This document shows, piece after piece, positions 29,941 through 50,634 of a stretch of 64,000 nucleotides of DNA. Below the pieces are notes generated by a model, which did not search any database, was not told the origin of the DNA, and was given only the letters and a program-made list of their open reading frames with translations. Each line of letters begins with the position of its first letter. Position 1 is the stretch's first letter. The stretch is from an uncultured bacterium (GTDB lineage Bacteria > Verrucomicrobiota > Lentisphaeria > Victivallales > UBA1829), in NCBI GenBank assembly GCA_902778895.1, contig CACYZF010000004.1:69821-133820 (forward strand). The letters are read 5' to 3'. A program made the position numbers and the translations under genes.

Positions 29941-29945
29941 CACGA

Positions 29946-31514: not shown

Positions 31515-31521
31515 GCTGAAT

Positions 31522-31871: not shown

Positions 31872-32001
31872 TTGAGGTAGATCATGTTCAAGAACGTGTT
31901 TCAGTTTTCTTTTCCGGGACGACTATGGATTTTTCTTCTTTTTGACGTTTTCGCTTTATTGGAACCATGTGAAAGCGACCGTTCAAAACAAGGAGACGCA
32001 A

Positions 32002-33346: not shown

Positions 33347-33358
33347 GCGAGGCTGATT

Positions 33359-33607: not shown

Positions 33608-33630
33608 GCGTTCGCTTTTTAACTCGATTC

Positions 33631-33673
33631 GGACAGGAATGACGCGAATGCCTTGTTCCTGTCCTTTTCTCTC
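33631..33673 (+). terminator. hairpin plus T-rich tract between the pilin genes and the assembly genes (attenuator-like)
   Basis: GGACAGGAA (33631-33639) pairs with TTCCTGTCC (33656-33664), followed by TTTTCTCTCTT. Confidence 0.5.
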
Positions 33674-33678
33674 TTGAC

Positions 33679-34236: not shown

Positions 34237-34249
34237 ACGAGGTGCGGCA

Positions 34250-34915: not shown

Positions 34916-34917
34916 AC

Positions 34918-36663
34918 ATGACGAACACACTTCCGACAAGCGTATGGGGCGTATTCAAAGCCCGCAGCACCGAGCTGGCGAAGGGAAACTCCGGCGCGGC
35001 GCTCGCGATTACGCTCGCGTTCGTCATGCCGATTTACCTGATGGTGATCGGGATCTACGGCATCGGCGAAGTGGTGCGGAACAAGATCGAGATCCAGAAC
35101 GCGGCGGACGCGGCGGCATATTCCGCGGCGGTCGTGCAGGCGGACTACCTCAGCCGCATGGCGACGGTGAACAAGGCGATGGCCTGGACCTACGTGGACC
35201 TGCAGAAACGTTCGCTCGACCTGGCGATGGATACGTTCTGCGCTACGGTCTTCACCAATTTCTCCAAAGATTTAGCAATGTGCGTCTCGCAGAACAGCCC
35301 GTGCCACATGCATACGCCGGGTCTCAATTGGAACTGCGGAACTGACGAACTCGTCTATGACAGCGTTCTCAAATTCGCCGGAACGGGCGTCGGCCTCCCG
35401 CTTGTGGCAAAGGAGTTCAACGGACAGGGGATGCTGTCAAGATTCCTGCTCAACCAGACCTATCATATCGCCGTGGCGAACATCAAGGGGAAAGGCACCG
35501 TCAGCAATCTGCCGAAGGTGATGACATACAGCTACAACATCATCAAGATGACAAAGAAGCTCGTCAATCTGAGGGACGAATACCAGAAAAAGGTCAAGGA
35601 GACCGCCCAGCAGATCGCCATCGCGAACATGATGGAATGTAAGGACGATTATTATGTAAAAGTCCACATGGGCGACATCAATCTGAGCTTCCTCACCATG
35701 CCGGGGACCGACGAAAACGAACAGACTTTCATCGCGTTTGCCGACCCGACGCTGAAGAGTTTCAAGCCGAAGGACGTGTTCGGCCGGGGGACGGACGTCT
35801 GGGTGAAACAGAAATCGCCCGTCGGCTTCTGGCGCGTTTACAAGCAGCAGAAAAAAGTCCTGTATGCGGAATGGGACTGGTTTTGGACCAAGTGGCGTCA
35901 TGTTCAGATCCTGTGGTATCAGGCCCACCTGCCGCCTTTCGCGCGCGGCTCCGGCGGCTGGAAGCGCGGCCACCCAAAGATCAAGGGAACCGACTTTCCG
36001 CTCATCAAAGAGAATATGCCAATCGGCCTGGTCGTTACGCCCGCGATTCCGATCACGCTTCTGCCGACCTTCTTCGGCAAGAGCGGGACCATCACGGTCG
36101 CGATCGTGCGGAAAACGGCGAATCCGCTGGCGAAATTCGACGGTCTCTTCTCCAACGCACAGTCGCTGACCGCGTCCGGGATACTTTCCGCGTTCAATCC
36201 GAGCGTGGGGAACGGCAGCCGTCCCGAGTTCATGTGCGCCATCGCGACCGCCCGCGCGGGCTACAAGACATACAACAAGGACAAGGAAGCAAAGATGAAG
36301 AGCTCCGACTACAACGTCGGATATGTGAAGGAAAGCCGCGAAAAGGAATGGAACCTGGTGGAGACCGACTGGGACGGCGTGATGCTGCCCGTGAAGCACG
36401 CCTGGGACCAGTGCGCCGGGGTCGGGATGGCGCAGACATTTGTCCCGCTTCCCGGAAGCGGCAGCATCCTGAAAGACATCTTCACCGACCGGAAGGGCTG
36501 GGTCGATTCGAAGGGGAAAGCCGCCGACGAGAAAAAGCTGCCCGAATGGGATAAGCTGAAGCCGCCGGGGGGCCTGATCACCGAGGATAACAAGAACAGC
36601 GGCGGCAAGAACGCCGAACAGAAACTGGACTGGGACAAACTCCGTGACTACCTTGGACATTAA
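34918..36663 (+). CDS. TadG-like (Tad_N domain) pilus assembly protein
   Basis: GNSGAALAITLAFVMPIYLMVIGIYGIGEVVRNKIEIQNAADAAAYSAAV matches the TadG/Tad_N pattern. 581 aa. Confidence 0.7.
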   Translation: MTNTLPTSVWGVFKARSTELAKGNSGAALAITLAFVMPIYLMVIGIYGIGEVVRNKIEIQNAADAAAYSAAVVQADYLSRMATVNKAMAWTYVDLQKRSLDLAMDTFCATVFTNFSKDLAMCVSQNSPCHMHTPGLNWNCGTDELVYDSVLKFAGTGVGLPLVAKEFNGQGMLSRFLLNQTYHIAVANIKGKGTVSNLPKVMTYSYNIIKMTKKLVNLRDEYQKKVKETAQQIAIANMMECKDDYYVKVHMGDINLSFLTMPGTDENEQTFIAFADPTLKSFKPKDVFGRGTDVWVKQKSPVGFWRVYKQQKKVLYAEWDWFWTKWRHVQILWYQAHLPPFARGSGGWKRGHPKIKGTDFPLIKENMPIGLVVTPAIPITLLPTFFGKSGTITVAIVRKTANPLAKFDGLFSNAQSLTASGILSAFNPSVGNGSRPEFMCAIATARAGYKTYNKDKEAKMKSSDYNVGYVKESREKEWNLVETDWDGVMLPVKHAWDQCAGVGMAQTFVPLPGSGSILKDIFTDRKGWVDSKGKAADEKKLPEWDKLKPPGGLITEDNKNSGGKNAEQKLDWDKLRDYLGH

Positions 36664-37345
36664 GACGTTATTGAAATCCGGGCGGGGATCGGTCCTGATG
36701 GAATTCGTGCTGGTTCTGCCGGTTTATATCGCGGTCATGGGCGGCACCCTGTGGATCGGGATGAAGTCGCTGGACGCGATCAATCTGCGTTCGGCTGACC
36801 ACTGGTCGGTCTGGAGCGAGGGCAACCGGTTCCAAATGCGTACGCCCGCCATGGTCGCGCTGCGGGACATGTTCCCGCGTTCCACGCTGGCCACGACGAA
36901 CGCGGCGCGGCGTCTGGAGGCGGAACACAGCTATCTGCAGTTCATCGCGTCGAAGACCACGATCATGGAGACTCGTCCGGACTATATCTCGAACTGGATG
37001 GACATGCCGTACACGATGAGCGGCCAATCGAAATCGCCATGGCAAATCATCCCGGAGCTCTCGATGTCCTCGTCCCGCTTCGGCAACAAGTACACGCAGT
37101 GCATTGTCATGCGCACGAAGGCGTCCAAAACCGCGAAACGCCACTGGCATTCGAGCCTGATCGCCGACAGGGGCATCTGGAAATTCGAGGGAAACGAGGA
37201 CAAGTATCCCTCCAAGTGGGAACTGAAGCTGATGGACAAAATCAAATACAAGGACGACAAGAAGGAAGAAGAAAAGGAACCGAAGAAGATCGACTTCTAC
37301 GAACGCTATGACACATATGAAGACTGGAGCGAGCCGGAGAAATGA
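36644..37345 (+). CDS. TadE-like pseudopilin 2
   Basis: GRG-SVLMEFVLVLPVYIAVMGG. GTG start overlaps the previous gene by 20 nt, so the start is uncertain. Confidence 0.65.
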   Translation: MTTLDIKTLLKSGRGSVLMEFVLVLPVYIAVMGGTLWIGMKSLDAINLRSADHWSVWSEGNRFQMRTPAMVALRDMFPRSTLATTNAARRLEAEHSYLQFIASKTTIMETRPDYISNWMDMPYTMSGQSKSPWQIIPELSMSSSRFGNKYTQCIVMRTKASKTAKRHWHSSLIADRGIWKFEGNEDKYPSKWELKLMDKIKYKDDKKEEEKEPKKIDFYERYDTYEDWSEPEK

Positions 37346-37788
37346 AGCGTCTGATGCCGTTCTTTCTGGTCTTCCTGCTGGTCTTCCTTTGCGGCACCGG
37401 ATTTCTGATGCTGAAAAGCGTGACCGCGAAGCCGGAGCCGCCCCGTCCGCAACAGCGAATAACGGAGCCCGTCAAGGGCGTCCTTCCCGCGCTGAATCTG
37501 CAGGACGAATCGAAGACCGCGCCGGGGACGGACAGCTGGGAATTCGAGGGACAGGTCAACTCGAATTACATTTCGACCAGAACGAAGTTCAGCGCGGCGC
37601 TGCTGCATGACGGCTGGAAGCCGGAGCGGCAGATCACGCTGGACGACAAGCTGTCTCCGCGCGTCCTGCTGACGTTTCAGAAGGGCGACCTGGAACTGAC
37701 CTTGATGCTGTGGAAAATTGATACCGGTACGACCGGTTTTACGTATCGGAGGGATCGAATCATCAACCCCGGAGTGGAACTTCAATGA
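37342..37788 (+). CDS. signal-anchored protein, function unknown
   Basis: ATGA-coupled on both sides. N-terminal MKRLMPFFLVFLLVFLCGTGFLML. No recognisable motif. Confidence 0.5.
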   Translation: MKRLMPFFLVFLLVFLCGTGFLMLKSVTAKPEPPRPQQRITEPVKGVLPALNLQDESKTAPGTDSWEFEGQVNSNYISTRTKFSAALLHDGWKPERQITLDDKLSPRVLLTFQKGDLELTLMLWKIDTGTTGFTYRRDRIINPGVELQ

Positions 37789-38861
37789 ACGAAAAAGACG
37801 CATCGTTTCTTGTCCTGTTTCTGGCGCCCGTCAAGGACTATCTGGCGGACGACAAGGTCTCGGAAATCCTGATCAACGGCCCGAACCAGATCTATATCGA
37901 GCGCGGCGGCAAACTTGAGGAGACCGAGGCGAAATTCGCCAGCGAGGCGCAGCTGAAGGCCGCCGCCGTGAACATCGCGAAATCGGTGGACCGTCAGCTG
38001 GACGAGATGCACCCCGACCTGGACGCCCGTCTCCCGGACGGTTCCCGCGTCCACGCCACGATCCCGCCCATCAGCCGCTGCGGCACGATCATCTCCATCC
38101 GCAAGTTCAAAAAGGATATGCTTACGCTGGAAAAACTCGAGGGATTCGGCAGCGTGCCGCATGAGGGCGTGCTGCTCCTGAACGCCATCGTGAAGTTGAG
38201 AAAGAACACCATCGTCTCCGGCGGAACATCCTCCGGCAAGACGTCCGTCCTGAACGCACTGAGCGGGCTGATCCCGGACAAGGACCGCATCCTCGTGCTG
38301 GAAGACGCCAGCGAGCTTCAGCTTCAGCAGCGGCACTGCGTCTACTTCGAGACACGCAAGCCGGACAAGAACGGACAGGGCGAGTTCTCCATCCGCGACC
38401 TCGTGATCGCGTCCCTGCGTCTGCGTCCCGACCGCCTGGTCATCGGCGAAATCCGCGGCGGCGAGGCGCTCGACCTGCTGCAGGCGATGAACACCGGCCA
38501 CTCCGGCTCCATGTCGACCATCCACGCGAACACCCCGGTGGATGCCCTGAGCCGTATGGAAACATGCTCCATCATGAGCGGCATCGAAATGCCGCTGACC
38601 GCCATCCGCATGCAGGTGGCCTCCGCCATCAACTGCGTGGTTCACACCATGCGCCTGCCCGACGGTTCCCGCAAGATCGTGGAGATCGCCGAGATCCTGC
38701 CGCTGGAACACGGCGAATACCGCACGCGCACGCTGATGAAGTGGCACACGGATTCGCTCGCGCCGGACGGGACCGTCTCCGGACGCTTCATCCTCGGCGA
38801 AAAGCCTTCGTTCGCCGACGACGCGAAGATCATGGGCATCGAGCTTCCGGACTATCCATGA
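37785..38861 (+). CDS. CpaF/TadA/VirB11-family secretion ATPase (short form, no FHA)
   Basis: Walker A GGTSSGKTS. Asp box ILVLEDASEL. Walker B RPDRLVIGEIRGGEA. His box GHSGSMSTIHAN. Confidence 0.9.
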   Translation: MNEKDASFLVLFLAPVKDYLADDKVSEILINGPNQIYIERGGKLEETEAKFASEAQLKAAAVNIAKSVDRQLDEMHPDLDARLPDGSRVHATIPPISRCGTIISIRKFKKDMLTLEKLEGFGSVPHEGVLLLNAIVKLRKNTIVSGGTSSGKTSVLNALSGLIPDKDRILVLEDASELQLQQRHCVYFETRKPDKNGQGEFSIRDLVIASLRLRPDRLVIGEIRGGEALDLLQAMNTGHSGSMSTIHANTPVDALSRMETCSIMSGIEMPLTAIRMQVASAINCVVHTMRLPDGSRKIVEIAEILPLEHGEYRTRTLMKWHTDSLAPDGTVSGRFILGEKPSFADDAKIMGIELPDYP

Positions 38862-39757
38862 CGGGAAACGGGTCCGGCAGCGCATTTTTCTCCGGCGAAA
38901 TCGTCTGCGGCAGCGTTCTTCAGCAGCTTCTCCGCGTACGGGAAAACAGCCGGGAGATCTGGCTGGCGTACGATACCGGCCTCAAGACCCATGTCATCCT
39001 CAAATTTATCCGTGAGGATGATCGAGGCGCGGAGCATCTTCCCGAACTTGCGGATTTCCTTATGCGGACGAAAAGCCCGTCGCTGATCCGTGTTCTGGAA
39101 GCACCGCAAAAAGTTGCCGGATACATCGTCGAAAAACAGGAGTATGCCGTCGGCGGCTCGCTGACATCAAGACTAAAACACTCGGGCAGGCTTCCCCTCG
39201 CGCAGACCGTCTATGTCATGCGGGAGGTGCTTCTTGCATTACAGGAGCTCCATACGAACGGGATCATTCACCGCGACATCAAGCCCGGCAACATCCTGAT
39301 CGCGTCGGACGGCGAGATCAAGGTGGGGGATTTCGGGATCGCGCGTCCGGTGCGGTTTTCGGAGAAAGGCCCCGATGTCTTCGGCACGCCGTCCGCCATG
39401 TCGCCCGAACAGACGCTCGACACGACGAAAGTCGATTGCCGCACGGATTTCTTCAGCCTGTCGTCCGTGATATATGAACTCCTGACATGGCGTCCGCGAT
39501 TTCCGCACGGGACACTGCTGGAAACGGGTGCGCTTGTCAGGAAAAGCCGTCCGGAGGACCTGGTGCGGGATTTGCAGCCGTTTGCAACGACGGACCTGTG
39601 TCATCTGCTGGGCTGGATGGCGGAACCGGACCCGGTGAAGCGGCCCCCGACAGCCGGGATCATTCTGGAAGAGCTTGACAGGCTTCGGCTGCCCTGCGAG
39701 CCATTGTCAGGAGAGCGGAAAACGCCGGAACAGCAGAGCCCGCCGGAACGAGCTTGA
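38858..39757 (+). CDS. Hanks-type Ser/Thr protein kinase
   Basis: Start trimmed to MTGNG (ATGA overlap with the ATPase stop). VILKFI Lys, catalytic loop HRDIKPGNIL, DFGIA, GTPSAMSPE. Confidence 0.9.
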   Translation: MTGNGSGSAFFSGEIVCGSVLQQLLRVRENSREIWLAYDTGLKTHVILKFIREDDRGAEHLPELADFLMRTKSPSLIRVLEAPQKVAGYIVEKQEYAVGGSLTSRLKHSGRLPLAQTVYVMREVLLALQELHTNGIIHRDIKPGNILIASDGEIKVGDFGIARPVRFSEKGPDVFGTPSAMSPEQTLDTTKVDCRTDFFSLSSVIYELLTWRPRFPHGTLLETGALVRKSRPEDLVRDLQPFATTDLCHLLGWMAEPDPVKRPPTAGIILEELDRLRLPCEPLSGERKTPEQQSPPERA

Positions 39758-40534
39758 ATCCTCCAGAAACGCGGGCGTTTTTCCTTTCGCCAGCGTTTTG
39801 ATCTCGCGGTCGGACAAGCGGAGCAGAACGGGTTCCGGGCGCAGATGGAGTTCGCGCAGTTTCTTCGCGGCGGACCGAATCCGCAGATGCAGCTGGATTT
39901 CCCGCAGAAGAACCGCAAGCGGGATCAGCAGAAACACCGGATGCAGAGCAGCGAACGTCAGCCCGCCGAAGAACAGAACCGGTATCTCCCATCTGCGGAA
40001 CAGATTCCCGGCCAGACGGCGGAACCGTGATTTGTGAACCTGGCAGGGGAAATACTCCTCATACACCGATACGGGATACGCGATCCGCAGAGCATGGACC
40101 ATTTCGTGGGCGAGCGTTTCGGCGGCATCGTAGCCGTGGTGGCGGCTTTTATTCAGGAATGCACCGGACAGGAAGACGATAGGGATGATCTTCTCCAGGA
40201 TGAGCGTCACCCCGGCGGAAAAACGTCCGGTCTCCCCGCTGGAACAGGATACGGGAATCCAGCGGGGGCTCGCGCCGTACAGGCCGGAAACCGTCCGCTC
40301 CGCCTCCTCGCGGATGCCGCCGGGCAGCGGACGCGCATCGGCAGGCGGCTCATAATCCCATTCCGTGCACATGGCCGCCAGACGCTTCTGAAATTCTTCC
40401 GGCGATTCCTGCGGAGCGACCAGCAGCCCTTGCTCATCCAGACCGCACAACTGGTCCGCAATCGCGGGAAAGCCGTCTTCCGGGCCGTTTAAGGCCGCAT
40501 TCAGCGCTTGGATGTCCGGCAAGTCAAGTTTCAC
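39707..40534 (-). CDS. membrane protein with a HExxH zinc-metalloprotease motif
   Basis: GTG start overlaps the flp3 stop. LAHEMVHAL. C-terminal hydrophobic helices (IPVLFFGGLTFAALHPVFLLIPLAVLL). The 3' end overlaps the kinase gene by 51 nt, convergently. Confidence 0.55.
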   Translation of the reverse strand: MKLDLPDIQALNAALNGPEDGFPAIADQLCGLDEQGLLVAPQESPEEFQKRLAAMCTEWDYEPPADARPLPGGIREEAERTVSGLYGASPRWIPVSCSSGETGRFSAGVTLILEKIIPIVFLSGAFLNKSRHHGYDAAETLAHEMVHALRIAYPVSVYEEYFPCQVHKSRFRRLAGNLFRRWEIPVLFFGGLTFAALHPVFLLIPLAVLLREIQLHLRIRSAAKKLRELHLRPEPVLLRLSDREIKTLAKGKTPAFLEDSSSFRRALLFRRFPLS

Positions 40535-40725
40535 GGGATCGGCAGGGAAATGACGGTTACGATGCGCTGGTACATGGATACCACAGCCTTGCCGACCGTG
40601 CCGAACCCGCCGGAAAACAGTTTGTTGGAATAGACGGCCGCGGACGCTCCGAAAACGAGCGGAAGGATCGAACAGACGAGGAGCACGTATTCCAGCAGAA
40701 CGCCGTGTTTTTTCCGAATTCTCAT
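40531..40725 (-). CDS. flp: Flp-type prepilin 3 (divergent)
   Basis: MRIRKKHG-VLLEYVLLVCSILPLVFG. 64 aa. ATGA-coupled to the upstream FHA gene. Confidence 0.65.
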   Translation of the reverse strand: MRIRKKHGVLLEYVLLVCSILPLVFGASAAVYSNKLFSGGFGTVGKAVVSMYQRIVTVISLPIP

Positions 40726-43112
40726 AAATTCAGACTCCTGACCCAGTTGAAGATCGGATCGCCCGGGATGCCGTTTTTGATCACATAATCCTTGATCTCC
40801 ACCGCCTTCTTTTCATCCATCGGATCGTACGAGTAGACGAAGGTTTGCTGTTCCAGACGGAAATTACGCCATTCCTCGCCGAACGCCTGCATCTGCGCCG
40901 GGATTTCCGGTCCGGGCGGCGCGAAGAAGAAGTACGCGGTCTTCGCGAGGAAATACTGCCGGTTGTTCTTGTGGCGGGCAGCGATATTCAGACATGCCTG
41001 GAGAACGACTTCCCTCGTTTTCAGGATCGCCTGATAATAATCCCTTGTTTCTTCGATTTTACCATGGAGGATCCATTCGTTTTGCGGGAGATTGAGCCAG
41101 ACAAGCGCTTCGGCAACCATGCGATACATATCCTTGAGCCGAATGCACAGCGGGACATACTGGATATCAGGGATCAGGTCGGTCGCGTAAATGTTGTTTG
41201 TGGAATGGACCGTCTGTTGAAGGACCTCGTAGAAATAACGTTCTCCGAAGAGTTTTTCGTACTCCTCCGATATAACTCTTGATCCGACGGGGAAAACACT
41301 TGGAAGCGAGATCACCTGTTCGATCAAAGCCTCATTGGAGAACAGCACGATCTCTTCCGGGAGCTTGCCCAAAACCAGATTGTATGGCGCAAGCGTCTCC
41401 TGCAGACCCTGCCATTGGGTCCGGACGCGCATCTGAGCCTGAAGACGATCCTCCATGTGTTCCCGAAGTTTGAAAAGCTGTGGAATCTTGATGCATTCGT
41501 CCAAAGAAATCAGGCGTATGGTGCGAATGTCGTCCATGCGCAGGTCGAACAGCATTTGATCGTTTTCATCCAGCGCTTCGATGTTGTCCCGGATTGTCCC
41601 TATCCTGACGGACAGTTCCCGCATATAGATCCTGAGAATACCGGAAATGTTCTGATTTTCACGCTTCAGATAGTCGATAAAAGCGTCCATCTGCTTCAAA
41701 TCCCTGATAACGGACACGTTGTCCAAACTCGATTCGATCTCCTTCAGCATGGTATTGTCATGCTCCAGTTCCGTCAGCAAATGGAGAATTTCCTGATAAA
41801 GCGGTTTCAGATAGTCCGGAACCGCGCTTGTTTCGATTTCCCCGTTATGATCGAAATCTTCCGACAAGCCGTTTTTCAGTTCATCTATCAGTTTTTCCTT
41901 CACAGGCTTCATTTCTTTCCATTTTTCCTTCAGATTGGCAACTGTCGTGTCCAAAGTCGTCACCATATTGTGCATAGACACCAGGACATCCAGCAGATAC
42001 TTTTCATGTGCGACCTGATTCTGGATGACGATCGTCTCAGGATCCGCCTGATTCCATGCGTCCGGATCTTCAAGTCCAAGTTTTCCGTAACTTTCCGCCG
42101 CATGTTTCCATTTACTGTCTTTCAAATCGTTCCGGAACTCAAGAAGCGCCTTGTAGGAATTCTCATAGTTCGGGATATTGGTGGAATAATCGCGGTATTG
42201 TTTTTCATAGCGCTGGAACCCTTTGGAGTCCGGCATTTTGGTCAGAACGCGCTCAGCCGCGCCGTAATCGTTCTTCCTGAGATAAAAATCAATGACGTCG
42301 ATCACCGTTTCGGTTGCCGGAAGCGACATGTAGTAAAGCCCGAAGCAGCCCGCGGCAACGAACAGGGTCAGCACGAGAATCAAAATCTTTTTTCCGAAGT
42401 GGGTCCGTGTATGAACGACGTTCCGGTCGAGGAACGCATAATCGAAACAGGCGATGGAAATATCGTCCAAATCCATCAGCATGCGCTCCTGCCGCTTCAG
42501 TCTTTCCCCGTTGACGAACGTGCCGTTGGAACTGCTCAAATCCTTTAGCCAGGTCTCTCCGTTTTCGGCGATGCGGATCTCCGCATGGCGTCTGGAGACC
42601 ACGTCGGATTTCAGGACCAGGTCGTTGTCGGAGGCGGAACCGATCCGGAACGGACTCTTCTCCAGCCGGATTATTTCTCCGTCCTTGTCGCCGCCGTGTA
42701 CTTCCAGACGATGCACATCGCAGGGGATGCGTTCGGATTTGGACGTGATCCTGACAAAGACTTCGGAATCCCCGATGGAGGCCCGGTCGTTCTTTTTCAG
42801 GACGGCGGAGGAAACGCTTTCTCCATGGACGTGAATACGGTTGTTCTCGCACGCGGTCAGTTTCACGCCGTTCTGAACGACATGCAGTTTCGCATGGTGT
42901 TCTCCGCACGATTGGTCCGTCTCCGGTATGACCAGATCGTTATCCTGCGCCCGTCCGATGGTCAGCGTTTTGTCCGGATCGTTGATCAGGACCGTCTGAA
43001 ACAGTTTGCCGCGGCAACGGAATTCAAGAGAATAACCGACCGTCCGCCTCCGGCTCGTACGGGCGTTATCTTCCGAAGTATTCGAACTAGTTTTTGATTT
43101 TGAAAAAGCCAT
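40722..43112 (-). CDS. double-FHA, single-pass membrane protein with a large uncharacterised C-terminal region
   Basis: FHA1 is TIGRAQDNDLVIPE...HAKL...NRIHVHGE. FHA2 is FRIGSASDNDLVLKSDVVSRRHAEI...SSNGTFVNGERL. TM helix ILILVLTLFVAAGCFGLYYM. About 520 aa follow with no motif I recognise. Confidence 0.8.
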   Translation of the reverse strand: MAFSKSKTSSNTSEDNARTSRRRTVGYSLEFRCRGKLFQTVLINDPDKTLTIGRAQDNDLVIPETDQSCGEHHAKLHVVQNGVKLTACENNRIHVHGESVSSAVLKKNDRASIGDSEVFVRITSKSERIPCDVHRLEVHGGDKDGEIIRLEKSPFRIGSASDNDLVLKSDVVSRRHAEIRIAENGETWLKDLSSSNGTFVNGERLKRQERMLMDLDDISIACFDYAFLDRNVVHTRTHFGKKILILVLTLFVAAGCFGLYYMSLPATETVIDVIDFYLRKNDYGAAERVLTKMPDSKGFQRYEKQYRDYSTNIPNYENSYKALLEFRNDLKDSKWKHAAESYGKLGLEDPDAWNQADPETIVIQNQVAHEKYLLDVLVSMHNMVTTLDTTVANLKEKWKEMKPVKEKLIDELKNGLSEDFDHNGEIETSAVPDYLKPLYQEILHLLTELEHDNTMLKEIESSLDNVSVIRDLKQMDAFIDYLKRENQNISGILRIYMRELSVRIGTIRDNIEALDENDQMLFDLRMDDIRTIRLISLDECIKIPQLFKLREHMEDRLQAQMRVRTQWQGLQETLAPYNLVLGKLPEEIVLFSNEALIEQVISLPSVFPVGSRVISEEYEKLFGERYFYEVLQQTVHSTNNIYATDLIPDIQYVPLCIRLKDMYRMVAEALVWLNLPQNEWILHGKIEETRDYYQAILKTREVVLQACLNIAARHKNNRQYFLAKTAYFFFAPPGPEIPAQMQAFGEEWRNFRLEQQTFVYSYDPMDEKKAVEIKDYVIKNGIPGDPIFNWVRSLNL

Positions 43113-44590
43113 TATTCGTCAAGCGTCCAGATGTTTTGCATGATTCTGAGATGCCGATAGTCATCGGGCGACGGAAATTTTGAAAGACATATATTGACCA
43201 CATCCCTCATCATGAGCCAGTTTTCACTTTGTTCATAATGCTGGTATGCCAGACACGCCTGCGCGTACCAAAGTGCCTGCCGTTCCCGGAAATCCTGCAG
43301 AAGCCCCAGGGCGTCTTCCATCATTTCCTCATCGTTTGCCTTTCCTGCGAGGGAAAGCAGGAGAGCGAACTTCTGCTTGATCTCCGTCCAGTCGGTGATC
43401 GCGACATTGACCATCATTTTGGACAGCAGGGTGCGGTACAGTTCCGTTTTGGAAACGCCTTCCGGAATGGTCTCCGGGATTTCCCAGTAACTGTTCGCGG
43501 CATCCGGGGAAGCAACGAAACAGCCATAATTGGTCAGGACTTTTTCCGCGCGCCAGTAGTGCTGAACCGGGACTTCGCGCGTAAAAATGATCTCTTTGTC
43601 GTGGTAACGCAAATAGCTGACAAACCCCTGCCACTGGAAATCGTTGTCATTCCGTTTGTATCCCATGGTCTGATAAGGGATGCCGCAAGTCGAGATGGAA
43701 TAGAACTTGTCTTCCGGAAGCTTGAGGAATGTGAAGCCGTGATTCTCTTCCGCATCCTTCTTCCAGTCGCTGAAACTATCCTTGCGGGAAACGACAAAAC
43801 CATCGGGAACATCGTTCACCACAAGTTTCAGGTGGAACACGACATCCAGATGCTTGCCCAGCAAAGTCATCACCTCGCAGTTCGTTTCCGTTTTCTCGAC
43901 CTTTGTCTGGGAACACTCCGGATAATAGATCATGAAATTTCCCTTGGGCGGCAGCTCGATGCGGAATTCCCCGTCGTTGAAAACTCCGGTCACTTCACCC
44001 GGCCAGGTCACGGGATTTTCCAGCTCCAATTCGGAATAGAGGAAACCGCCTCCGATCACCGCAAGCAGCAGAATGACCGCAAAGGCAAACGTAAACTTCC
44101 TGCGGCTGGTCTGCTTCTGAGAAAAACGCCTCAGATCGTCAAGTTCCTCCTCGGAGGCGTAACGGGTCTTATCTTCTTTTTTTTCTCCGCTTTCCGCTCC
44201 GCCGTCGACCGTGCCGTCTTCCGTCGTCTCGTCGTCATCGGGTGAGAAAGGCGAAGACATCACCACCGGGATCGTACCGTCTTCTTCCTCGATGCTGAAA
44301 AACAGCTTCTTCCCGAGACGCACGGCCATTCCGGGCTTCAGTTCCGTCTCCATGCCGGGTTCCAGCTGTTTGTCGTCGACGAACACGGATTCGGCATAGG
44401 ATTTGAGGACAAGCGCGGAATCGGACTCCCGGACAAACAGGAATGCATGCTGAATCGCGATGTCCTCTCCGCCCGGACGGATTCCCGCCGTTTGCGATTT
44501 TCCGATCATGACCCCTTCGGCCGGCACGACGAAGGACCTGCCGGAGAGCTCGCCGCCTGTGAAGAGGATCTTGTAATATTTTGATTCCAT
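43112..44590 (-). CDS. FHA-domain single-pass membrane protein with an uncharacterised C-terminal domain
   Basis: N-terminal FHA-like domain (VMIGKSQTAGIRPGGEDIAIQHAFL...VFVDDKQL), acidic linker, TM helix FAFAVILLLAVIGGGFLY, then about 300 aa of unknown function. Confidence 0.7.
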   Translation of the reverse strand: MESKYYKILFTGGELSGRSFVVPAEGVMIGKSQTAGIRPGGEDIAIQHAFLFVRESDSALVLKSYAESVFVDDKQLEPGMETELKPGMAVRLGKKLFFSIEEEDGTIPVVMSSPFSPDDDETTEDGTVDGGAESGEKKEDKTRYASEEELDDLRRFSQKQTSRRKFTFAFAVILLLAVIGGGFLYSELELENPVTWPGEVTGVFNDGEFRIELPPKGNFMIYYPECSQTKVEKTETNCEVMTLLGKHLDVVFHLKLVVNDVPDGFVVSRKDSFSDWKKDAEENHGFTFLKLPEDKFYSISTCGIPYQTMGYKRNDNDFQWQGFVSYLRYHDKEIIFTREVPVQHYWRAEKVLTNYGCFVASPDAANSYWEIPETIPEGVSKTELYRTLLSKMMVNVAITDWTEIKQKFALLLSLAGKANDEEMMEDALGLLQDFRERQALWYAQACLAYQHYEQSENWLMMRDVVNICLSKFPSPDDYRHLRIMQNIWTLDE

Positions 44591-44604: not shown

Positions 44605-45510
44605 TCAGAACAAAGGAACGCCCGATTCTTTCATTTTCAGAAAGACCGGCGTAAGGATGATAATGAACACTGCCGGAAGGATGAAAAGCGCCATCGGAAG
44701 CAACATCAGGGACGGCGCACGCTGAGCTTTGCATTCGGCGATCGAGAACCGCAGTTTGCGCATTTCCTCGCTCTGGATATCCATCGTATCCGCCAGGGAC
44801 GCGCCGAGTTCCGTGCCCATCACCACGGCCGACGCGAACGATGTGAACTCCTTGATCTGAATCCGGTCCGCCATGTTCTGGAGCGCGGCCGTGCGGATGA
44901 CGCCGAGTTCCATTTCCCTGAGCATGGTCCGGTATTCATCCGTCAGCGGGCCTTTGACCCCCAAATTCACATAGAACCGGATCGCCGCGGTGAAATCCAG
45001 ACCGCCGCGCATCGCGGATGAAATCAGGTCGATGGAAAAAGGAATCGCCTGAAGGATTTTCGTCTTGCGTTCCTGGACCAGATTGCCAACCGCGATGCCG
45101 GGAAGGAACCAGCCGATGAACACGCCGATCAGCGCCGCGACCGGGATGGCTCCCCGCTGATCCGGAGGGACCACCATCCATGTCCCCATGGCAAACGCCG
45201 CGCCCATCGCCAAAACCAGAAAAATCCGGGCTTCATAGACGAACGCGGGAGCGAGGTCAAGGCCCGCATACTGAAGCTTTTTCCGCATTGCGCGGCATTG
45301 CGCGGGGAAGAGCTTATAGATCAGACTGCCGAACCCGAGCGCGTCCATGATGGCGACGGGTGTGGCGCAGAGCCGGAAGACCGATGGCGTTTCATCATCC
45401 TCTTCCTTCTTTTTGCGCGAGGCGGGAGTGTTGTCCGTGAAGAGAACATATCCCATGACCGGCAGAAGCACCACCAGGAACGTTATCAGATAAATGACCG
45501 TACGATTCAT
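44605..45510 (-). CDS. tadC: TadC-like platform protein (T2SS-F domain)
   Basis: AIPFSIDLISSAMRGGLDFTAAI and C-terminal TM helices typical of the T2SSF family. Confidence 0.8.
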   Translation of the reverse strand: MNRTVIYLITFLVVLLPVMGYVLFTDNTPASRKKKEEDDETPSVFRLCATPVAIMDALGFGSLIYKLFPAQCRAMRKKLQYAGLDLAPAFVYEARIFLVLAMGAAFAMGTWMVVPPDQRGAIPVAALIGVFIGWFLPGIAVGNLVQERKTKILQAIPFSIDLISSAMRGGLDFTAAIRFYVNLGVKGPLTDEYRTMLREMELGVIRTAALQNMADRIQIKEFTSFASAVVMGTELGASLADTMDIQSEEMRKLRFSIAECKAQRAPSLMLLPMALFILPAVFIIILTPVFLKMKESGVPLF

Positions 45511-45511: not shown

Positions 45512-46408
45512 TTACACCTTCACATCCACGATTGCACGGATCACGAAGTATCCGATCGTTTCCAGCGTCAGCATGACCCCGATGGCGCACCATCCGATCA
45601 GCGTTTTCACCATCGGCATCATCAGATCGTTGTTGATGACGAACAGGAGCACGAACGCCAGAAGCGGCGCGAGAGACATGGCAAGCGCTTCGAACCGCCC
45701 CTGCGCCGTCAGCGCCTTCAGCTTCTGTTGAAACTCAATTCGGCCGCGGATCGTTTGCGTAATGCGCTGGAGGACATCCGCCAGGCTTCCGCCGGACTGC
45801 AACGTCAGACGGATCGAAATGATCAGGAGCTGAAGGTCTTCGCACGGCAGGCGGTCGTACATGCGCTGAAGCGCATCCGGCAGCTCCACGCCGAGACGGT
45901 ATTCCTTCAGCACGACGTCGAGTTCTTCTTTCAGGGTACCCTCGCTCCGGCGGGCGAAGACTTCCAGCGCCTGGGGCAAGGCCTGTCCTGCGCGCAGGCC
46001 GCTGGTCAATCCCATGGAGAGATCAAGGATGCTGCCTTCGAAGTCGAGGGCGCGTTTCTTCACTTTCCGGGAGTAATACAGGAGCGGAGCCGCGTACCCG
46101 ATGCCGAGCGCGATCAAACTGACGGGAACCAGCACATAAAACATGTAAACCTTGCAGAAAAGCAGGATCGAAACGATGACCGCCATCAGGAGAATCCCGA
46201 TGGAGAACTGGATCTGCAGCAGGACCTGGGGAGAAACGAAATACCCGATGTCGTTGCGATGTCCGCCGAGGTTCCTGTCTTTGACTTTATGGTCGAAATG
46301 CTCCATGCCGACCTGCTGGACCAGGCCGACGGACAGAAAGATCAGGAGAAACACCGCGGCGAAGACCAGCAGGTAAATCCCGTATTTGCTCAGGAATGAC
46401 GAATTCAT
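45512..46408 (-). CDS. tadB: TadB-like platform protein (T2SS-F domain)
   Basis: LDLSMGLTSGLRAGQALPQALEVFARR. N- and C-terminal TM helices. Confidence 0.8.
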   Translation of the reverse strand: MNSSFLSKYGIYLLVFAAVFLLIFLSVGLVQQVGMEHFDHKVKDRNLGGHRNDIGYFVSPQVLLQIQFSIGILLMAVIVSILLFCKVYMFYVLVPVSLIALGIGYAAPLLYYSRKVKKRALDFEGSILDLSMGLTSGLRAGQALPQALEVFARRSEGTLKEELDVVLKEYRLGVELPDALQRMYDRLPCEDLQLLIISIRLTLQSGGSLADVLQRITQTIRGRIEFQQKLKALTAQGRFEALAMSLAPLLAFVLLFVINNDLMMPMVKTLIGWCAIGVMLTLETIGYFVIRAIVDVKV

Positions 46409-46414: not shown

Positions 46415-48124
46415 TCAGTTCTCCGGTACGAATACGGACATGTCCAGCTGAAGGTCGCCGGACTGCCGGAGTTCATCGATGAAACGCGGGATGTTGCCGG
46501 TCGCCGTATGATGTCCGAGGACATGGAATTTTTCATCGAATCCCTCCTGCTCGAACGTGAAGATGTCCTGCATCAGGATGATGCCGTTTTCGCGGCCCGT
46601 GACCTCGCTGATCTTTACGATCTTGCGGGATCCGTCCGGCAGGCGCGTCTGCTGAACGATCAGGTGGATCGCCGATGCGATCTGTTCCCGGATCGCGGCG
46701 GACGGCAGTTCGAATCCTGCCATCATGACCATATTTTCCAGGCGGGACAGCGCGTCGCGCGGCGTATTGGCATGGCAGGTCGTCATGGAGCCGTCGTGGC
46801 CCGTGTTCATCGCCTGAAGCATATCCAGCGCTTCAGGGCCGCGGCATTCCCCGACGATGATCCGGTCGGGACGCATGCGCAGCGTGTTGATGACGAGGTC
46901 GCGGATCGTGATCCGCCCCTGTCCTTCCACGTTGGCGGGACGAGCCTCAAGGCGGCAGAGGTTCTCATGCGTAAGCTTCAGTTCTGCCGAGTCTTCGACC
47001 GTGATGATGCGTTCCTTTTCGGGGATGAACAGCGAAAGGATGTTCAGGAGCGTCGTCTTGCCGGATCCCGTGCCGCCGGAGACCAGGATATTTCTGCGGG
47101 CGCGGACCGCCTCCTTCAGAAAAAGCGTCATGGCGTGCGTCAGGCTTCCGAACTTCTCCAGGTCGTCCGAGGTCAGCTTCTTCGACGGGAATTTGCGGAT
47201 CGTGACTAGGGAACCGTCGAGCGCGAGCGGGGGAATGACCGCGTTCACGCGGGAACCGTCCTTAAGTCGGGCGTCGACCATCGGGGACGCCGCGTCGATA
47301 TGACGTCCCAGCGGCTCCACGATTCGCTGGATGATCGACTGCAGATGCGCCTCGCTATGGAATTTGGACGGAGTCCGGTACTGCAGACCTTTGCTTTCGA
47401 TGAAAATGTGCTCCGGACCGTTGATCATGATCTCGGAAATGGACGCATCGCGCAGAAGCGGGGAAAGAGGACCGAGGCCGATCAGATTGTCCATCAGCGT
47501 TTGTCTGAGCAGGTCGATGTTTACTTCCGGGGGGATTTCGTGACGGATTTCACGGAGAACCTGATCCACCGCGCTTTCCACCTGCGGACGCATGGAAGCG
47601 TTCGAAAGGTTGTTCTGCGTTTCGTTGTTCACATTGAGCAGTTCCAGAACACGTGTCTGGACACGCTTCGACAGCTGCATCATTTTTTCGGTGAAGAGGC
47701 TCTGCTGTTCCTTCTGCGCCGAATAGATGGGAAGGGTGTGTCCTGATCCGGGTATGGAATCCGGGAGCGGACCCGACGGCATCGAGGCAGAAGAGGAAGC
47801 ATTGTTCCGCAGTGAAACCGCCATGTCAGTCGCGGCTGCCCCCGAACTCGGCTGGACCATGAACTCGAAATCGGAAATGCTCAGGACGTCGCCTGCGATC
47901 AGCTCCGTCTTCTCCTTGACGGGAACGCCGTTTATCCGCGTCCCCGCGTGGCTTTCCAGGTCGCGGACGAACACCTTGCCGTCCTGTTCCGTGATCTCGG
48001 CATGGCGGCGCGACACATGCTTGTCCGGGATTCGGATGTCGGCGTCCTCGTGCCGGCCGATGATCAGACAGCAGCCGGTAGGAAGTTCGATGGAGCGTTT
48101 TTCGTTTTTGAATATAAGCTTCAT
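46415..48124 (-). CDS. cpaF: FHA-domain / CpaF (TadA) ATPase fusion
   Basis: Start trimmed to MKLIFKNEK. FHA is LIIGRHEDADIRIPDKHVSRRHAEI...HAGTRINGV. ATPase has Walker A GGTGSGKTT, IITVEDSAEL, RPDRIIVGECRGPEA and GHDGSMTTCHAN. Confidence 0.9.
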   Translation of the reverse strand: MKLIFKNEKRSIELPTGCCLIIGRHEDADIRIPDKHVSRRHAEITEQDGKVFVRDLESHAGTRINGVPVKEKTELIAGDVLSISDFEFMVQPSSGAAATDMAVSLRNNASSSASMPSGPLPDSIPGSGHTLPIYSAQKEQQSLFTEKMMQLSKRVQTRVLELLNVNNETQNNLSNASMRPQVESAVDQVLREIRHEIPPEVNIDLLRQTLMDNLIGLGPLSPLLRDASISEIMINGPEHIFIESKGLQYRTPSKFHSEAHLQSIIQRIVEPLGRHIDAASPMVDARLKDGSRVNAVIPPLALDGSLVTIRKFPSKKLTSDDLEKFGSLTHAMTLFLKEAVRARRNILVSGGTGSGKTTLLNILSLFIPEKERIITVEDSAELKLTHENLCRLEARPANVEGQGRITIRDLVINTLRMRPDRIIVGECRGPEALDMLQAMNTGHDGSMTTCHANTPRDALSRLENMVMMAGFELPSAAIREQIASAIHLIVQQTRLPDGSRKIVKISEVTGRENGIILMQDIFTFEQEGFDEKFHVLGHHTATGNIPRFIDELRQSGDLQLDMSVFVPEN

Positions 48125-48131
48125 GGACAGA

Positions 48132-49802
48132 TTACCACGTGAACATTCTTTCAAACCACGTTTTCTGTTCGTTTTCCTGGACTTTGAGATTTTCCGCATT
48201 GACCCGTTCGGAAACCTCCTGCTCCAGCGTGGCGTTTTCTTCGGACGGACGCGTCTCCATCTTAAAGTTCTGATCCATCAGTTCCGGCGACACCAGGATC
48301 AGCATCTGGAGTTCTTCGCCCTTGTCTTCTTCGGACGACGCGAACCAGTTGATAACCGGAATATGCCGGAGGAACGCATAACCGGACGGTCCTTCATGAG
48401 AAAAAGTCAGCTCCTTCTGTCCCGCGATGACGGCTGTTTTTCCGAGCGGACAGATCAGCGTCGTCTTGGTTTTGCTCTTGCTCTGGACATAGTCGTCGCC
48501 GTCCCGGACCGGAGGCAGACTCCGTTCCAGATCCAGATTCAGCTTGACCGTATTGTCTTCCTGAAGGAATGCCTGGGCCTTGTATTTCAGTCCGTACTCG
48601 ATCTCCTTCATGTCGGCGGTATCCCGTCCGTACACCTTGACCTGGCGCGTGCCGCCGTTTTCATACGTGGATTCGTCGCCGTTGTTCGTGAGCGTGATGT
48701 GTCCCGCGTCGCGGAAATCGGCGATCCCGTTCTGTCCGAAGAACACCAGAGCCCCCTTCAGATTCGTTTCGAGCGTAATCGAGCCGCCTGCATGCTGGCT
48801 GCCATGGCTGTCGATCGCGTCCTTTGCGCCGCCGTACAGCGCCTTGAACCAGCCAACGACGTCCCACGTCAGGACCGTGCCGTCCGCATTGGCGTTTCCA
48901 AGACGTTCCAGCTGTTTTCTAGTCACGCCGACGAAGACGACTCCGAGGTCGACCTGGGATGGCACGATTCTCAAGTCGGTTTTGAGGCTGGCATTGTTGC
49001 CGTTCCACTCCGGATCCAGCCAGCGTTGCGCCGAGAGGATGGATTCGACCGTTTTAATGCCGTCTTCGGAGTACAGATATCCACGCACGGTCAGGACGGT
49101 CCCGGTAAGGTTCATGGACAGCTTGCCGGGTGCTTCCGGACCGGATTGTTCCTCCACGGGGAATCCGGCGTCCGTCAGCTGTTTTTTCAAATCGGCGATC
49201 AGTTTCGTATCCGGGACAAAAGCAACGTAGCTGTTGCATCTGCTTTCATAGGACTGCAGGATGCGGCGGAAATAATCCCAGTGGACGGGCTGCGTAATGA
49301 TGCCGCGGAGAACAAGCCCCCCGTCGTACATCTGCAGGGTGACTTCCGGAAGCTCCTCCAGAAGACGACTCATTTCCTGATACGTCTGAAGCGTCGAGTT
49401 ATATACCGTGATATGAAAACTCTTCTCGATGCCTCCGGCATGGACCGTGATGACGGCACGGCCGGGCGAAACCCCGGACACCTCGAACGTGTTGGCGTTG
49501 ACATGCTCGATCTTGACGTTGGACGAATCCGATTTGCAGGATTCGATGGTGAACGGCATGCTCAGTACGCGTTTTTCCCCGACGGTGATGGAGATCTGTT
49601 CCTGCATCGGATCGTTCCCGTTTTCGTTCTGCGAACCGAGCGCCTGAGTGATCGCCTTCACGATATCTTCCTGAGATACCTGAACTTCGTTTGCCTGGGA
49701 CTGACCCGGGGCGCCGGACGGCTGCTGAGCCGTCTGGCCCATGCCGGGAAGTGTCAGAAGAATGCCTGCCAGCAGAAGGAATGCTGTCGTAATTCTTTTC
49801 AT
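48132..49802 (-). CDS. cpaC: secretin (CpaC/RcpA type)
   Basis: Signal peptide. C-terminal secretin block GKTAVIAGQKELTFSHEGPSGYAFLRHIPVINWFASS...LILVSPELM. Confidence 0.85.
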   Translation of the reverse strand: MKRITTAFLLLAGILLTLPGMGQTAQQPSGAPGQSQANEVQVSQEDIVKAITQALGSQNENGNDPMQEQISITVGEKRVLSMPFTIESCKSDSSNVKIEHVNANTFEVSGVSPGRAVITVHAGGIEKSFHITVYNSTLQTYQEMSRLLEELPEVTLQMYDGGLVLRGIITQPVHWDYFRRILQSYESRCNSYVAFVPDTKLIADLKKQLTDAGFPVEEQSGPEAPGKLSMNLTGTVLTVRGYLYSEDGIKTVESILSAQRWLDPEWNGNNASLKTDLRIVPSQVDLGVVFVGVTRKQLERLGNANADGTVLTWDVVGWFKALYGGAKDAIDSHGSQHAGGSITLETNLKGALVFFGQNGIADFRDAGHITLTNNGDESTYENGGTRQVKVYGRDTADMKEIEYGLKYKAQAFLQEDNTVKLNLDLERSLPPVRDGDDYVQSKSKTKTTLICPLGKTAVIAGQKELTFSHEGPSGYAFLRHIPVINWFASSEEDKGEELQMLILVSPELMDQNFKMETRPSEENATLEQEVSERVNAENLKVQENEQKTWFERMFTW

Positions 49803-49815: not shown

Positions 49816-50634
49816 TTATTTCGTGGAGTTTGCAGTTTCGTTCGAGAGCAGCGCCGTATCCAGGTCGGAACGCACGGCTTCGAACGTTTTCGAGTTCACG
49901 GCCCCGATTTCCGAACGATTCCGTGCGGACGGATCGTTTCTTCTGCGGAGAATCGGGAAAAGTTCCGCTTCATGCTGTGCCGCCAGCAGGATTGTCGCCT
50001 GCCGGGGAGGAAGGGATACGTAGATCGTGGCGGTCGCACTGCCCGGCTCGCGGAAAAGGCCGTTGCTGTTATCGAGCCCGATCACCTCAATGCAGGGGAA
50101 CAGGATAACGGTTTCGCGTTCCTCCTTCACGTCCGCCTTCATAGCCGCTTCCGGATCCTTGAGCAGCTCTTCCGAGGTCGCTTTCGGGTGTTCGACGTTG
50201 GTGTGTGCATAAAGTGCCGCGATCGCTATTTCGTCCTGCGGACGCAGCATTTTTACAAGGGTCGGATCGGAAAACGTCACCGGGACCAGCCATTGGCCGG
50301 TGGTGACGCAGTCCGCCAGGGAGATGTTCAGCTGAATGTCATCGAACATGACGTAGCTGCCGCGTTTGATCGCACGCGGGATCTTCTGGCCGTAGGTCAG
50401 GCTGACGCTGTCCCAGAGAATCGCGGATTGCGGGACCGCCGATTCCGGCAGGTTTTTGAACGAGCACGCGCCCGGCATGAGCTCTTCTCCCGCTTCAAGA
50501 TCGCGGGCTGCGACCACAACGGATATCTGTGGCTCCTGTTCGGTGTCCTGGTTTTTGACAAGGACGTTGCTCACCATGTAAACGGCTGCAAGTCCCAGGA
50601 GGACGGCTACGATCAGCGGAATGACATTCTTCAT
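49816..50634 (-). CDS. cpaB: CpaB/RcpC-like pilus assembly protein (SAF domain)
   Basis: N-terminal anchor IPLIVAVLLGLAAVYMV. VVVAARDLEAGEEL SAF-type motif. GAGG RBS. Confidence 0.8.
   Translation of the reverse strand: MKNVIPLIVAVLLGLAAVYMVSNVLVKNQDTEQEPQISVVVAARDLEAGEELMPGACSFKNLPESAVPQSAILWDSVSLTYGQKIPRAIKRGSYVMFDDIQLNISLADCVTTGQWLVPVTFSDPTLVKMLRPQDEIAIAALYAHTNVEHPKATSEELLKDPEAAMKADVKEERETVILFPCIEVIGLDNSNGLFREPGSATATIYVSLPPRQATILLAAQHEAELFPILRRRNDPSARNRSEIGAVNSKTFEAVRSDLDTALLSNETANSTK

Follow-up and report, generated by a model that had tools for sequence, protein, structure and literature searches.

TadZ/CpaE is the usual docking and localization factor of Tad systems. How the Tad motor is recruited and switched is an open question, and answers based on TadZ/CpaE or on polar landmarks are not applicable to systems in which CpaF carries an FHA domain. 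FHA folds on the cytoplasmic side of a trans-envelope machine are also found in type III secretion systems (T3SS), in SctD (YscD, PrgH or CdsD); in the chlamydial version, CdsD, the FHA domain is present twice and the protein is phosphorylated by the kinase PknD. The Chlamydiae, too, belong to the Planctomycetes-Verrucomicrobia-Chlamydiae (PVC) group. The Tad-like Kil apparatus of Myxococcus xanthus includes a CpaF with an N-terminal FHA domain, several FHA proteins without known function, and a kinase-like gene (Seef et al. 2021, PMC8460266). One of these FHA proteins, MXAN_4649, has a PrgH-like match and adjoins the TadB and TadC homologs (PMC8460266, supplementary table). Class III CpaF proteins, in which an FHA domain, a disordered region and the ATPase follow one another, are reported mostly from Betaproteobacteria by Yen et al. 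2025 (PMC12019362), who describe no partner FHA membrane proteins.

Here we describe two adjacent genes, geneA and geneB, in a Tad locus of an uncultured bacterium (Verrucomicrobiota; Lentisphaeria; Victivallales; UBA1829). The DNA analysed, hereafter the window, is a stretch of 64,000 nucleotides (GenBank assembly GCA_902778895.1, contig CACYZF010000004.1, forward-strand positions 69,821 to 133,820). Judging from gene order in related genomes, PVC bacteria of gut and rumen carry the pair as a fixed part of a kinase-linked Tad cluster, and did not pick it up separately. We propose, with moderate confidence, that the products serve as scaffold subunits, integral to the inner membrane, of a Tad-like machine that is phospho-regulated and has no TadZ.

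Conservation of the pair and linkage to tad genes

The two genes appear in the list of open reading frames (ORFs) as follows.

43112-44590 (-): geneA, 492 amino acids
40722-43112 (-): geneB, 796 amino acids

The geneA stop codon and the geneB start codon have one nucleotide in common (TAATG), and the genes are the sixth and seventh of a compact nine-gene operon on the minus strand. A first-pass annotation of this DNA had described two ORFs with this overlap between tadC and flp3; their coordinates are confirmed, as is the third Flp-type pilin gene. Because both proteins are conserved in more than 40 independent loci, geneA and geneB are real genes and not chance ORFs. The comparisons below indicate that they encode co-translated, always-paired bitopic proteins directly after tadB-tadC.

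Over geneA, the window has 99% identity to a rumen metagenome-assembled genome (MAG), Victivallales bacterium Tb.RUG.336. Word-index searches returned ~66 clusters of geneA proteins, with lengths of 483 to 517 amino acids, and ~35 clusters of geneB proteins of uniform length; the few named ones are from Lentisphaeria. A scan of GTDB species representatives detected 34 loci, of which four, at 34-35% identity, are in Opitutales (including Candidatus Merdousia) and the rest in Victivallales/Lentisphaeria. An exhaustive profile search with the predicted periplasmic domain of geneB extended this family to 114 representatives at E<=1e-3. Nearly all of these are 750-840 amino acids long, and the match covers the whole domain from about residue 255. 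FHA domains were found by Pfam in all ten distant geneB representatives tested, eight of which have two such stretches, and 72 of the 82 full-length representatives have a single transmembrane segment at about residue 240.

Named members of the geneB family are labelled Lentisphaeria, Victivallaceae, Kiritimatiellae or simply "bacterium", and are annotated only as "FHA domain-containing protein". All named members of either family are PVC bacteria, and by this survey named carriers are limited to Lentisphaeria, Kiritimatiellia and Opitutales. MAGs assigned to Victivallis are among those that have the locus. Gut and rumen commonly harbour these carriers (Victivallales, Kiritimatiellia and Opitutales), and very little is known about their surface biology.

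We mapped 18 proteins of the window's locus onto the close-family loci (L001-L038), which comprise the 34 from the genome scan and four contig look-ups, one contig being present twice. The 33 informative ones correspond to 32 species-representative genomes and two metagenome contigs, with one contig present twice. In all 33 close loci that are long enough to judge, the four from Opitutales among them, the genes run CpaB-secretin-FHA-CpaF-TadB-TadC-geneA-geneB. Genes for a Flp-like pilin and a 275-amino-acid protein come next wherever the contig suffices, and a second tad operon is adjacent in most close loci. The same order recurs in seven of eight distant contexts (L040-L046; geneB matches of E=1e-11 to 1e-28), one of which is from Kiritimatiellae, and in each of these seven a protein of 508-575 amino acids is encoded directly before the geneB homolog. 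In L040-L043 this protein is homologous to geneA over the periplasmic domain (E=1e-28 to 1e-36); in L044-L046 the assignment is by size, position and FHA matches, with L044 and L045 also aligned. A stop/start overlap of 1-4 nucleotides between geneA and geneB is present in the window and in several other loci. The first-pass annotation had viewed the two proteins as the most likely novel structural or regulatory parts of the machine, and the constancy of the pair's position in both close and distant loci supports a role as dedicated parts of the Tad machine.

Some related loci have unusual features. In the Kiritimatiellae locus L039, the geneB homolog is 1028 amino acids long and carries an extra C-terminal PEGA domain. 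It is preceded by a 285-amino-acid FHA protein that matches only the FHA domain and transmembrane segment of geneA, and earlier by a 353-amino-acid protein and a 1303-amino-acid protein, the latter related to IcmF (TssM-like). In L045 (12514-19670), a 1387-amino-acid RHS/YD-repeat protein of the polymorphic-toxin type directly follows the geneB homolog, and is itself followed by a second Tad ATPase and an FHA-sigma54 activator. This arrangement hints that some Tad-like machines are tied to effector delivery. In L037 (CP091727.1, a long-read Lentisphaeria MAG chromosome), all locus genes appear split into two or three ORFs each, most likely through long-read indel errors rather than pseudogenization.

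The geneA and geneB proteins

Both proteins have an N-terminal FHA region, one transmembrane helix and a large C-terminal domain, arranged as follows.

44279..44590 (-): geneA residues 1-104, FHA-fold domain (AlphaFold, Foldseek)
44141..44170 (-): geneA residues 141-150, juxtamembrane motif K-T142-R-Y-A-S-E-E-E-L
44036..44095 (-): geneA residues ~166-185, transmembrane helix, predicted N-in/C-out (hydropathy 2.49)
43115..44023 (-): geneA residues 190-492, predicted periplasmic domain (AlphaFold)
42747..43037 (-): geneB residues 26-122, FHA1 (Pfam, AlphaFold)
42429..42713 (-): geneB residues 134-228, FHA2 (Pfam, alignment)
42330..42386 (-): geneB residues 243-261, transmembrane helix, predicted N-in/C-out (hydropathy)
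40725..42320 (-): geneB residues 265-796, predicted periplasmic domain, all-alpha (AlphaFold)

The AlphaFold model of geneA, built with 26 homologs, has a predicted local distance difference test score (pLDDT) of 84. Its N-terminal beta-sandwich matches solved FHA domains in Foldseek (E=1e-7, TMt 0.75-0.86), and Pfam gives a weak Yop-YscD_cpl match (E=1.3e-3, 19.4 bits). The linker that follows (residues 105-146) is disordered and acidic, with 11 D/E and 4 K/R residues. The transmembrane segment is part of a long helix, with a flanking net charge of +5 before and -4 after. The domain beyond it opens with an invariant ENPxTWPGE motif, and in the model it consists of a beta-rich part with ten strands and two helices (residues ~206-354) followed by a helical part (residues 362-484).

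For geneB, the model has a pLDDT of 76.5. Pfam detects FHA in two stretches (95 bits) as well as Yop-YscD_cpl (75.9 bits, with a cut-off of 33.2), and the model has Foldseek matches to FHA domains at E=6e-5. Net charge around the transmembrane helix is +3 before and -3 after. The periplasmic domain is predicted to begin with TPR-like helices, which are followed by six long helices of 24-37 residues. Its C-terminal globular part is well conserved and includes the motifs FGERYFYEVLQQTVHS and GIPGDP.

Charge is positive before and negative after each transmembrane helix, which predicts a cytoplasmic location for the FHA domains and a periplasmic one for the large domains. The first-pass annotation had assigned to the 492-residue protein an FHA domain, an acidic linker, one transmembrane helix and about 300 residues that it could not place, and to the 796-residue protein tandem FHA domains, one transmembrane helix and about 520 such residues. 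Structure models and Foldseek, Pfam, linker charge, hydropathy and profile scans agree with this description, the last domain being closer to 530 residues. The coupling of cytoplasmic FHA domains to extracytoplasmic domains that it had supposed is likewise consistent with the positive-inside rule.

The two C-terminal domains (~300 and ~530 amino acids) give nothing but noise in Pfam even at E<=10, in scans of three divergent members, and NCBIfam and PADLOC scans are without a match. In particular, Pfam finds no sensor family such as PAS, Cache, 4HB_MCP or similar in either domain. When an alignment of the geneA domain was searched against PDB sequences by profile, nothing was detected (best E=0.09). 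The geneB profile retrieved only low-scoring helical or coiled-coil proteins from the PDB, with a best E of 0.004, over domain residues ~100-250. Foldseek with the full-length geneB model has FHA domains as all of its best 50 PDB matches, down to E=2.2e-3, and the periplasmic domain is therefore without a better match. For geneA, the lone non-FHA match in the PDB is SciW, a DUF1795-type chaperone of type VI secretion systems (T6SS), at E=4e-5 but with TMt 0.54 and a root-mean-square deviation of 9 Å. We regard this as a weak lead only. Comparison of the geneA model with viral structures yields FHA proteins and weak phage lipoprotein matches, and is uninformative. As the Foldseek queries were full-length models, FHA matches dominate the output and weaker ones may be hidden beneath them.

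The search of the C-terminal regions has thus produced no match to a family of unrelated function. The two periplasmic domains belong to families without a Pfam or NCBIfam entry, and are candidates for new envelope-spanning parts of type IV filament machines. They are unrelated to each other (hhalign probability 2.8%). A W-x-x-F-R-x-x-Q-Q string occurs in both, at residues ~430-442 of geneA (LQDFRERQALWY) and ~745-756 of geneB (EEWRNFRLEQQ); the hhalign comparison is not significant.

FHA residues and a candidate phosphorylation site

The first-pass annotation attributed cytoplasmic phosphothreonine (pThr) readers to these proteins. We compared the residues that contact pThr in FHA domains, namely the Arg of G-R, the Ser and His of S-x-x-H and the Asn of N-G, in 11 geneA and 19 geneB sequences that span the families, and in CpaF from ten loci. 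In distant clades, the geneA FHA domain and FHA1 of geneB are canonical at all of these positions. In the window, geneA has IGKS instead of IGRS (G30-K31), Ala45 at the Ser position and no NG, with His48 kept; FHA1 of geneB has G53-R54, Gly70 at the Ser position and a lost NG loop. FHA2 of geneB has invariant Gly158, Ser173, His176, Asn196 and Thr198 in all 19 sequences. The position of its Arg is occupied by Ser159 in the window, and is never Arg in the 19. CpaF keeps G-R and S-R-x-H in ten of ten loci, although its N-G loop is altered in the window (SHAGT). By these alignments, only CpaF's FHA domain has the Arg-Ser-His phosphate-binding core in the window's organism. The geneA and geneB domains look more like FHA-fold scaffolds, as in SctD. 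Accordingly, the FHA folds of the first-pass annotation stand, but a pThr-reading function is doubtful for domains in which these residues are lost (geneA, FHA1) or the Arg is absent (FHA2).

The loss of pThr residues (window 44447-44503 and 42894-42956; geneA residues 30-48 and geneB residues 53-73) is a trait of the Victivallales/Opitutales clade, whose loci have a small soluble kinase and no PP2C phosphatase in view. In distant clades (compare L040-L045) the residues are retained, and PP2C genes are found in the loci. This pattern looks like a lineage-specific rewiring of phospho-signalling.

Within the cytoplasmic linker of geneA, Thr142 alone is invariant (11 of 11 sequences drawn from across the family), and the T-R-x-A-[ST]-P-E-E-[LIM] motif that contains it, ~25 residues before the membrane, is conserved. 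Because of this invariance, geneA is a plausible kinase substrate, and Thr142 may be the site. PP2C genes are present in L041, L043 and L044, and L043 also has a large kinase.

Organization of the locus

Pfam and NCBIfam scans identify the first five genes of the operon, which precede geneA, and two further genes follow geneB.

49816-50634 (-): CpaB/RcpC
48132-49802 (-): secretin
46415-48199 (-): CpaF with N-terminal FHA domain
45512-46408 (-): TadB
44605-45510 (-): TadC
40531-40725 (-): Flp-type pilin of 64 amino acids with prepilin motif G/VLLEY, directly 3' of geneB
39707-40534 (-): membrane protein of 275 amino acids with HEMVH motif, last gene of the operon

From CpaB to TadC the genes are spaced by 1-14 nucleotides, the exception being the longest CpaF ORF, which overlaps the end of the secretin gene. 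The genes for the 64-amino-acid pilin and the 275-amino-acid protein each overlap their upstream neighbour by 4 nucleotides. The latter protein is without a match in Pfam and NCBIfam scans. It has two hydrophobic segments, and its HEMVH sequence is an HExxH motif like that of zinc proteases. Its gene is kept in the close family where the contig extends, and is not recognized in distant loci.

A second operon converges on the first and was annotated by Pfam/NCBIfam scans and motifs.

33095-39757 (+): second operon, containing in order two Flp pilins, an A24 prepilin peptidase, TadE, a TadG-like protein, a second TadE, a 148-amino-acid protein, an ATPase and a kinase
37785-38861 (+): within it, a second TadA/CpaF-type ATPase, 358 amino acids, without an FHA domain
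38858-39757 (+): within it, a soluble Ser/Thr kinase, 299 amino acids, with HRD, DFG and catalytic Lys present

The kinase has no transmembrane segment and no sensor domain. The second ATPase also lacks the disordered region and adjoins the kinase in most loci. The system therefore has two motors, one FHA-fused and one minimal. G/xxxEY motifs are found in all three small pilins. Together, the operons provide the Tad/Flp gene set: Flp pilins, A24 peptidase, TadA/CpaF, TadB, TadC, CpaB/RcpC, secretin and TadE/TadG-type minor pilins. No TadZ/CpaE (ParA/MinD-type) gene was found by Pfam scans of the window's two operons, or in any table of related loci.

These loci thus share a compact and very conserved set that comprises an FHA-CpaF, two membrane partners with FHA folds, a kinase (or in other lineages a phosphatase) and an invariant threonine. 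On this comparative evidence, the two uncharacterized families mark a TadZ-less Tad subtype that is linked to FHA domains and a kinase, and whose named members are found only in PVC bacteria.

Related systems

In architecture, SctD comes closest to the pair. It has the same N-terminal cytoplasmic FHA fold, single transmembrane segment and large periplasmic domain, its FHA fold is likewise without canonical pThr-binding residues, and the FHA structures of YscD and CT664 are among the Foldseek matches of the geneA and geneB models. However, the three alpha-beta-beta-alpha-beta domains with which SctD builds rings are not present in the pair, the SctD model TIGR02500 reaches 22 of the 86 bits required and covers only residues 49-105, and Yop-YscD_ppl has no match at E<=10. 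The genomic contexts of the pair are also Tad/Flp clusters and not T3SS.

At the level of the whole system, the Kil apparatus is the closest relative by the gene content described in PMC8460266. Unlike the single locus studied here, in which two operons converge and both a TadG-like gene and a second ATPase are included, the kil genes lie in two clusters without TadG, and KilD is annotated as a cytoplasmic protein with FHA and TPR domains. The likeness to this predatory system raises the possibility of contact-dependent functions. The window's CpaF has the class III architecture of Yen et al. 2025 (PMC12019362).

The threonine-phosphorylation pathway of T6SS (PpkA/PppA/Fha1 or TagH) likewise combines a Hanks-type kinase, a PP2C phosphatase (here in related loci) and FHA proteins in the cluster of a trans-envelope machine. 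By analogy, kinase, PP2C and FHA genes in one cluster suggest post-translational gating of assembly. However, PpkA is membrane-bound whereas the kinase here is soluble, and it is the FHA proteins themselves that are membrane-anchored here, with large periplasmic domains. With the TagH model TIGR03354 the match is confined to the FHA domain, at 46.8 bits where 120 are required.

GspL/GspM and PilM-PilN/PilO also include a single-pass inner-membrane pair that is encoded with platform and ATPase genes, with a cytoplasmic domain that might bind the ATPase and a periplasmic one that might extend to the secretin-associated ring. The geneA and geneB proteins, by contrast, have no actin-like cytoplasmic domain, no ferredoxin-like periplasmic domain and neither sequence nor profile similarity to these proteins, and their periplasmic domains are three to five times larger. 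We found nothing specific in the literature on Tad systems with FHA proteins in PVC bacteria or Lentisphaeria, or on the two families.

Possible functions

In the scaffold that we propose, geneA and geneB would surround the TadB/TadC platform in the inner membrane. On the periplasmic side, their domains would reach out in the direction of CpaB and the secretin. On the cytoplasmic side, the CpaF hexamer would be docked or positioned by their FHA folds, in the way that SctD, the inner-ring protein of T3SS, docks the sorting platform with its FHA-like domain. The scaffold would thereby take over the ATPase-docking role held elsewhere by TadZ. This proposal draws on the fixed N-in/C-out pair in a structural operon, the pThr-competent FHA domain of CpaF, the presence of a kinase or phosphatase gene in the locus, and the lack of TadZ. 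More speculatively, the kinase might phosphorylate Thr142 of geneA, and CpaF's canonical FHA domain might then bind pThr142, so that recruitment or activity of the motor would be phosphorylation-dependent and switchable. We regard this Thr142-CpaF step as considerably less likely than the scaffold itself.

Several observations weigh against this picture. Three of the four FHA domains here are without the full set of phosphate-binding residues, no PP2C phosphatase is present among the 40 window proteins scanned (which are not every ORF), and phospho-control may be reduced in the window's lineage. The +3 residue relative to Thr142 is Ala in most of the 11 sequences and Val, Tyr or Ile in three, and recognition of pThr142 by an FHA domain is conjectural. 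A tadZ gene could lie in another part of the genome, and a known periplasmic fold may have been missed, especially in geneA. In L039 (Kiritimatiellae, 302-9311), which is the eighth distant context, the contig ends two genes upstream and no tad gene is in view.

The main rival, which is not exclusive of a scaffold role, is that the pair is chiefly a transmembrane sensor-transducer that would detect an envelope or contact cue with its periplasmic domains and pass it through its FHA folds and the kinase/phosphatase to switch CpaF on or off. The Pseudomonas H1-T6SS, which is triggered by threonine phosphorylation through TagQRST-PpkA-PppA-Fha1, would be a parallel. As the kinase is soluble, with neither a transmembrane segment nor a sensor domain, another protein would have to bring in any periplasmic signal. 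The PP2C genes of distant loci, the intact pThr-binding residues of FHA-CpaF, and the RHS/YD-repeat protein and FHA-sigma54 activator within L045 also accord with signalling, and a contact-triggered FHA cascade was proposed for Kil by its authors (PMC8460266). Yet the position in a structural operon, the stop/start overlap and the one-to-one pairing with tadB/tadC in every locus suggest stoichiometric subunits, the periplasmic domains match no known sensor family, and the pair's own FHA domains are degenerate in the window's lineage. We consider a chiefly sensory role possible but rather unlikely. It is improbable, in our view, that the periplasmic domains are instead distant, FHA-fused forms of PilN/PilO, GspL/GspM, the TPR pilotin TadD or the SctD ring domains. 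GspL/GspM and PilN/PilO do share the gene position and the bitopic topology, the periplasmic part of geneB starts with helices that look TPR-like, and Yop-YscD_cpl matches the cytoplasmic domains. However, Pfam T2SSM, PilN, PilO, GspL_C, Yop-YscD_ppl and TPR are all unmatched at E<=10, and the TIGR02500 score is far below its cut-off. The PDB profile searches with both domains, and the 50 best Foldseek matches of geneB, returned no such relative. The all-alpha geneB and ten-stranded geneA models also fit neither ferredoxin-like folds nor alpha-beta-beta-alpha-beta ring motifs.

The scaffold proposal has a bolder extension, in which the pair would define a distinct "FHA-Tad" subtype within the type IV filament superfamily. 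In this subtype the pair would replace both TadZ and a PilMNO-like alignment complex, reading of pThr142 by CpaF's FHA domain would switch docking, and contact-dependent effector delivery would be possible. The RHS-type toxin gene of L045 and the parallel with Kil suggest that the machine could serve such delivery in gut and rumen PVC bacteria, rather than simple adhesion. We think this full version doubtful.

Base composition and the question of acquisition

The base composition of the pair was compared with that of the five genes that precede it, including GC content at second (GC2) and third (GC3) codon positions.

geneA, geneB: GC 52.9%, 50.9%; GC3 0.67, 0.65; GC2 0.36, 0.33
CpaB, secretin, CpaF, TadB, TadC: GC 56-58%; GC3 0.71-0.78; GC2 0.39-0.41 (TadB 0.32)

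The 3.9-kb geneA-geneB segment has 51.6% GC, compared with 58.7% for the window, and is in the lowest 5% of sliding windows. The first-pass annotation had contrasted 47-52% GC in the pair with about 60% in tadB/cpaF and the kinase gene. The dip is real, but at 56-58% for tadB/cpaF the contrast with these neighbours is smaller than it had stated; the kinase and second ATPase genes are at 59-62%. Both GC2 and GC3 contribute to the low GC, the former through proteins with an excess of D, E, N and Y and a deficit of A. Across 14 orthologous loci, the dip is found in the window's species and is weaker in a sister group; elsewhere, for example in the other clades represented by L012, L014, L017 and L031, the pair has the same GC as its neighbours.

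The same annotation had suggested that the pair was acquired as a separate module, for instance by horizontal transfer into an older tad operon, and the low GC of the segment relative to the operon's tad genes and the window is what such an event might leave behind. However, the pair's position is constant across Lentisphaeria, Opitutales and Kiritimatiellia, in close and distant loci alike, and holds down to 34% identity (Opitutales) and beyond. The dip is missing from other clades, and the part of it that is due to GC2 reflects amino acid composition. We noted no repeats, integrase or tRNA at the borders, where the genes overlap or abut their neighbours. Because the dip is lineage-limited and the position of the pair is fixed, separate acquisition is ruled out for practical purposes and we regard it as extremely improbable. 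Lineage-specific drift in amino acid composition and codon use fits the dip better.

Other features of the window

The remainder of the window is ordinary chromosome, with gyrB, recA, ftsK, hydrogenase and glycoside hydrolase genes. GC is lowest at 28900-33000, immediately outside the Flp genes, and falls to 44% at 32-33 kb. This stretch includes a gene for a DUF4143/AAA_14 ATPase (30175-31461, minus strand); the ~1.6 kb that lead up to the first Flp gene (31.5-33.1 kb) contain no ORFs other than short ones. At 56338-59935 (plus strand) there are two adjacent weak DA1-like (peptidase-type) matches, a 301-amino-acid protein without a match, and a SUKH/SMI1-KNR4 protein. Members of the SUKH/SMI1-KNR4 family are often immunity proteins of polymorphic toxin systems.

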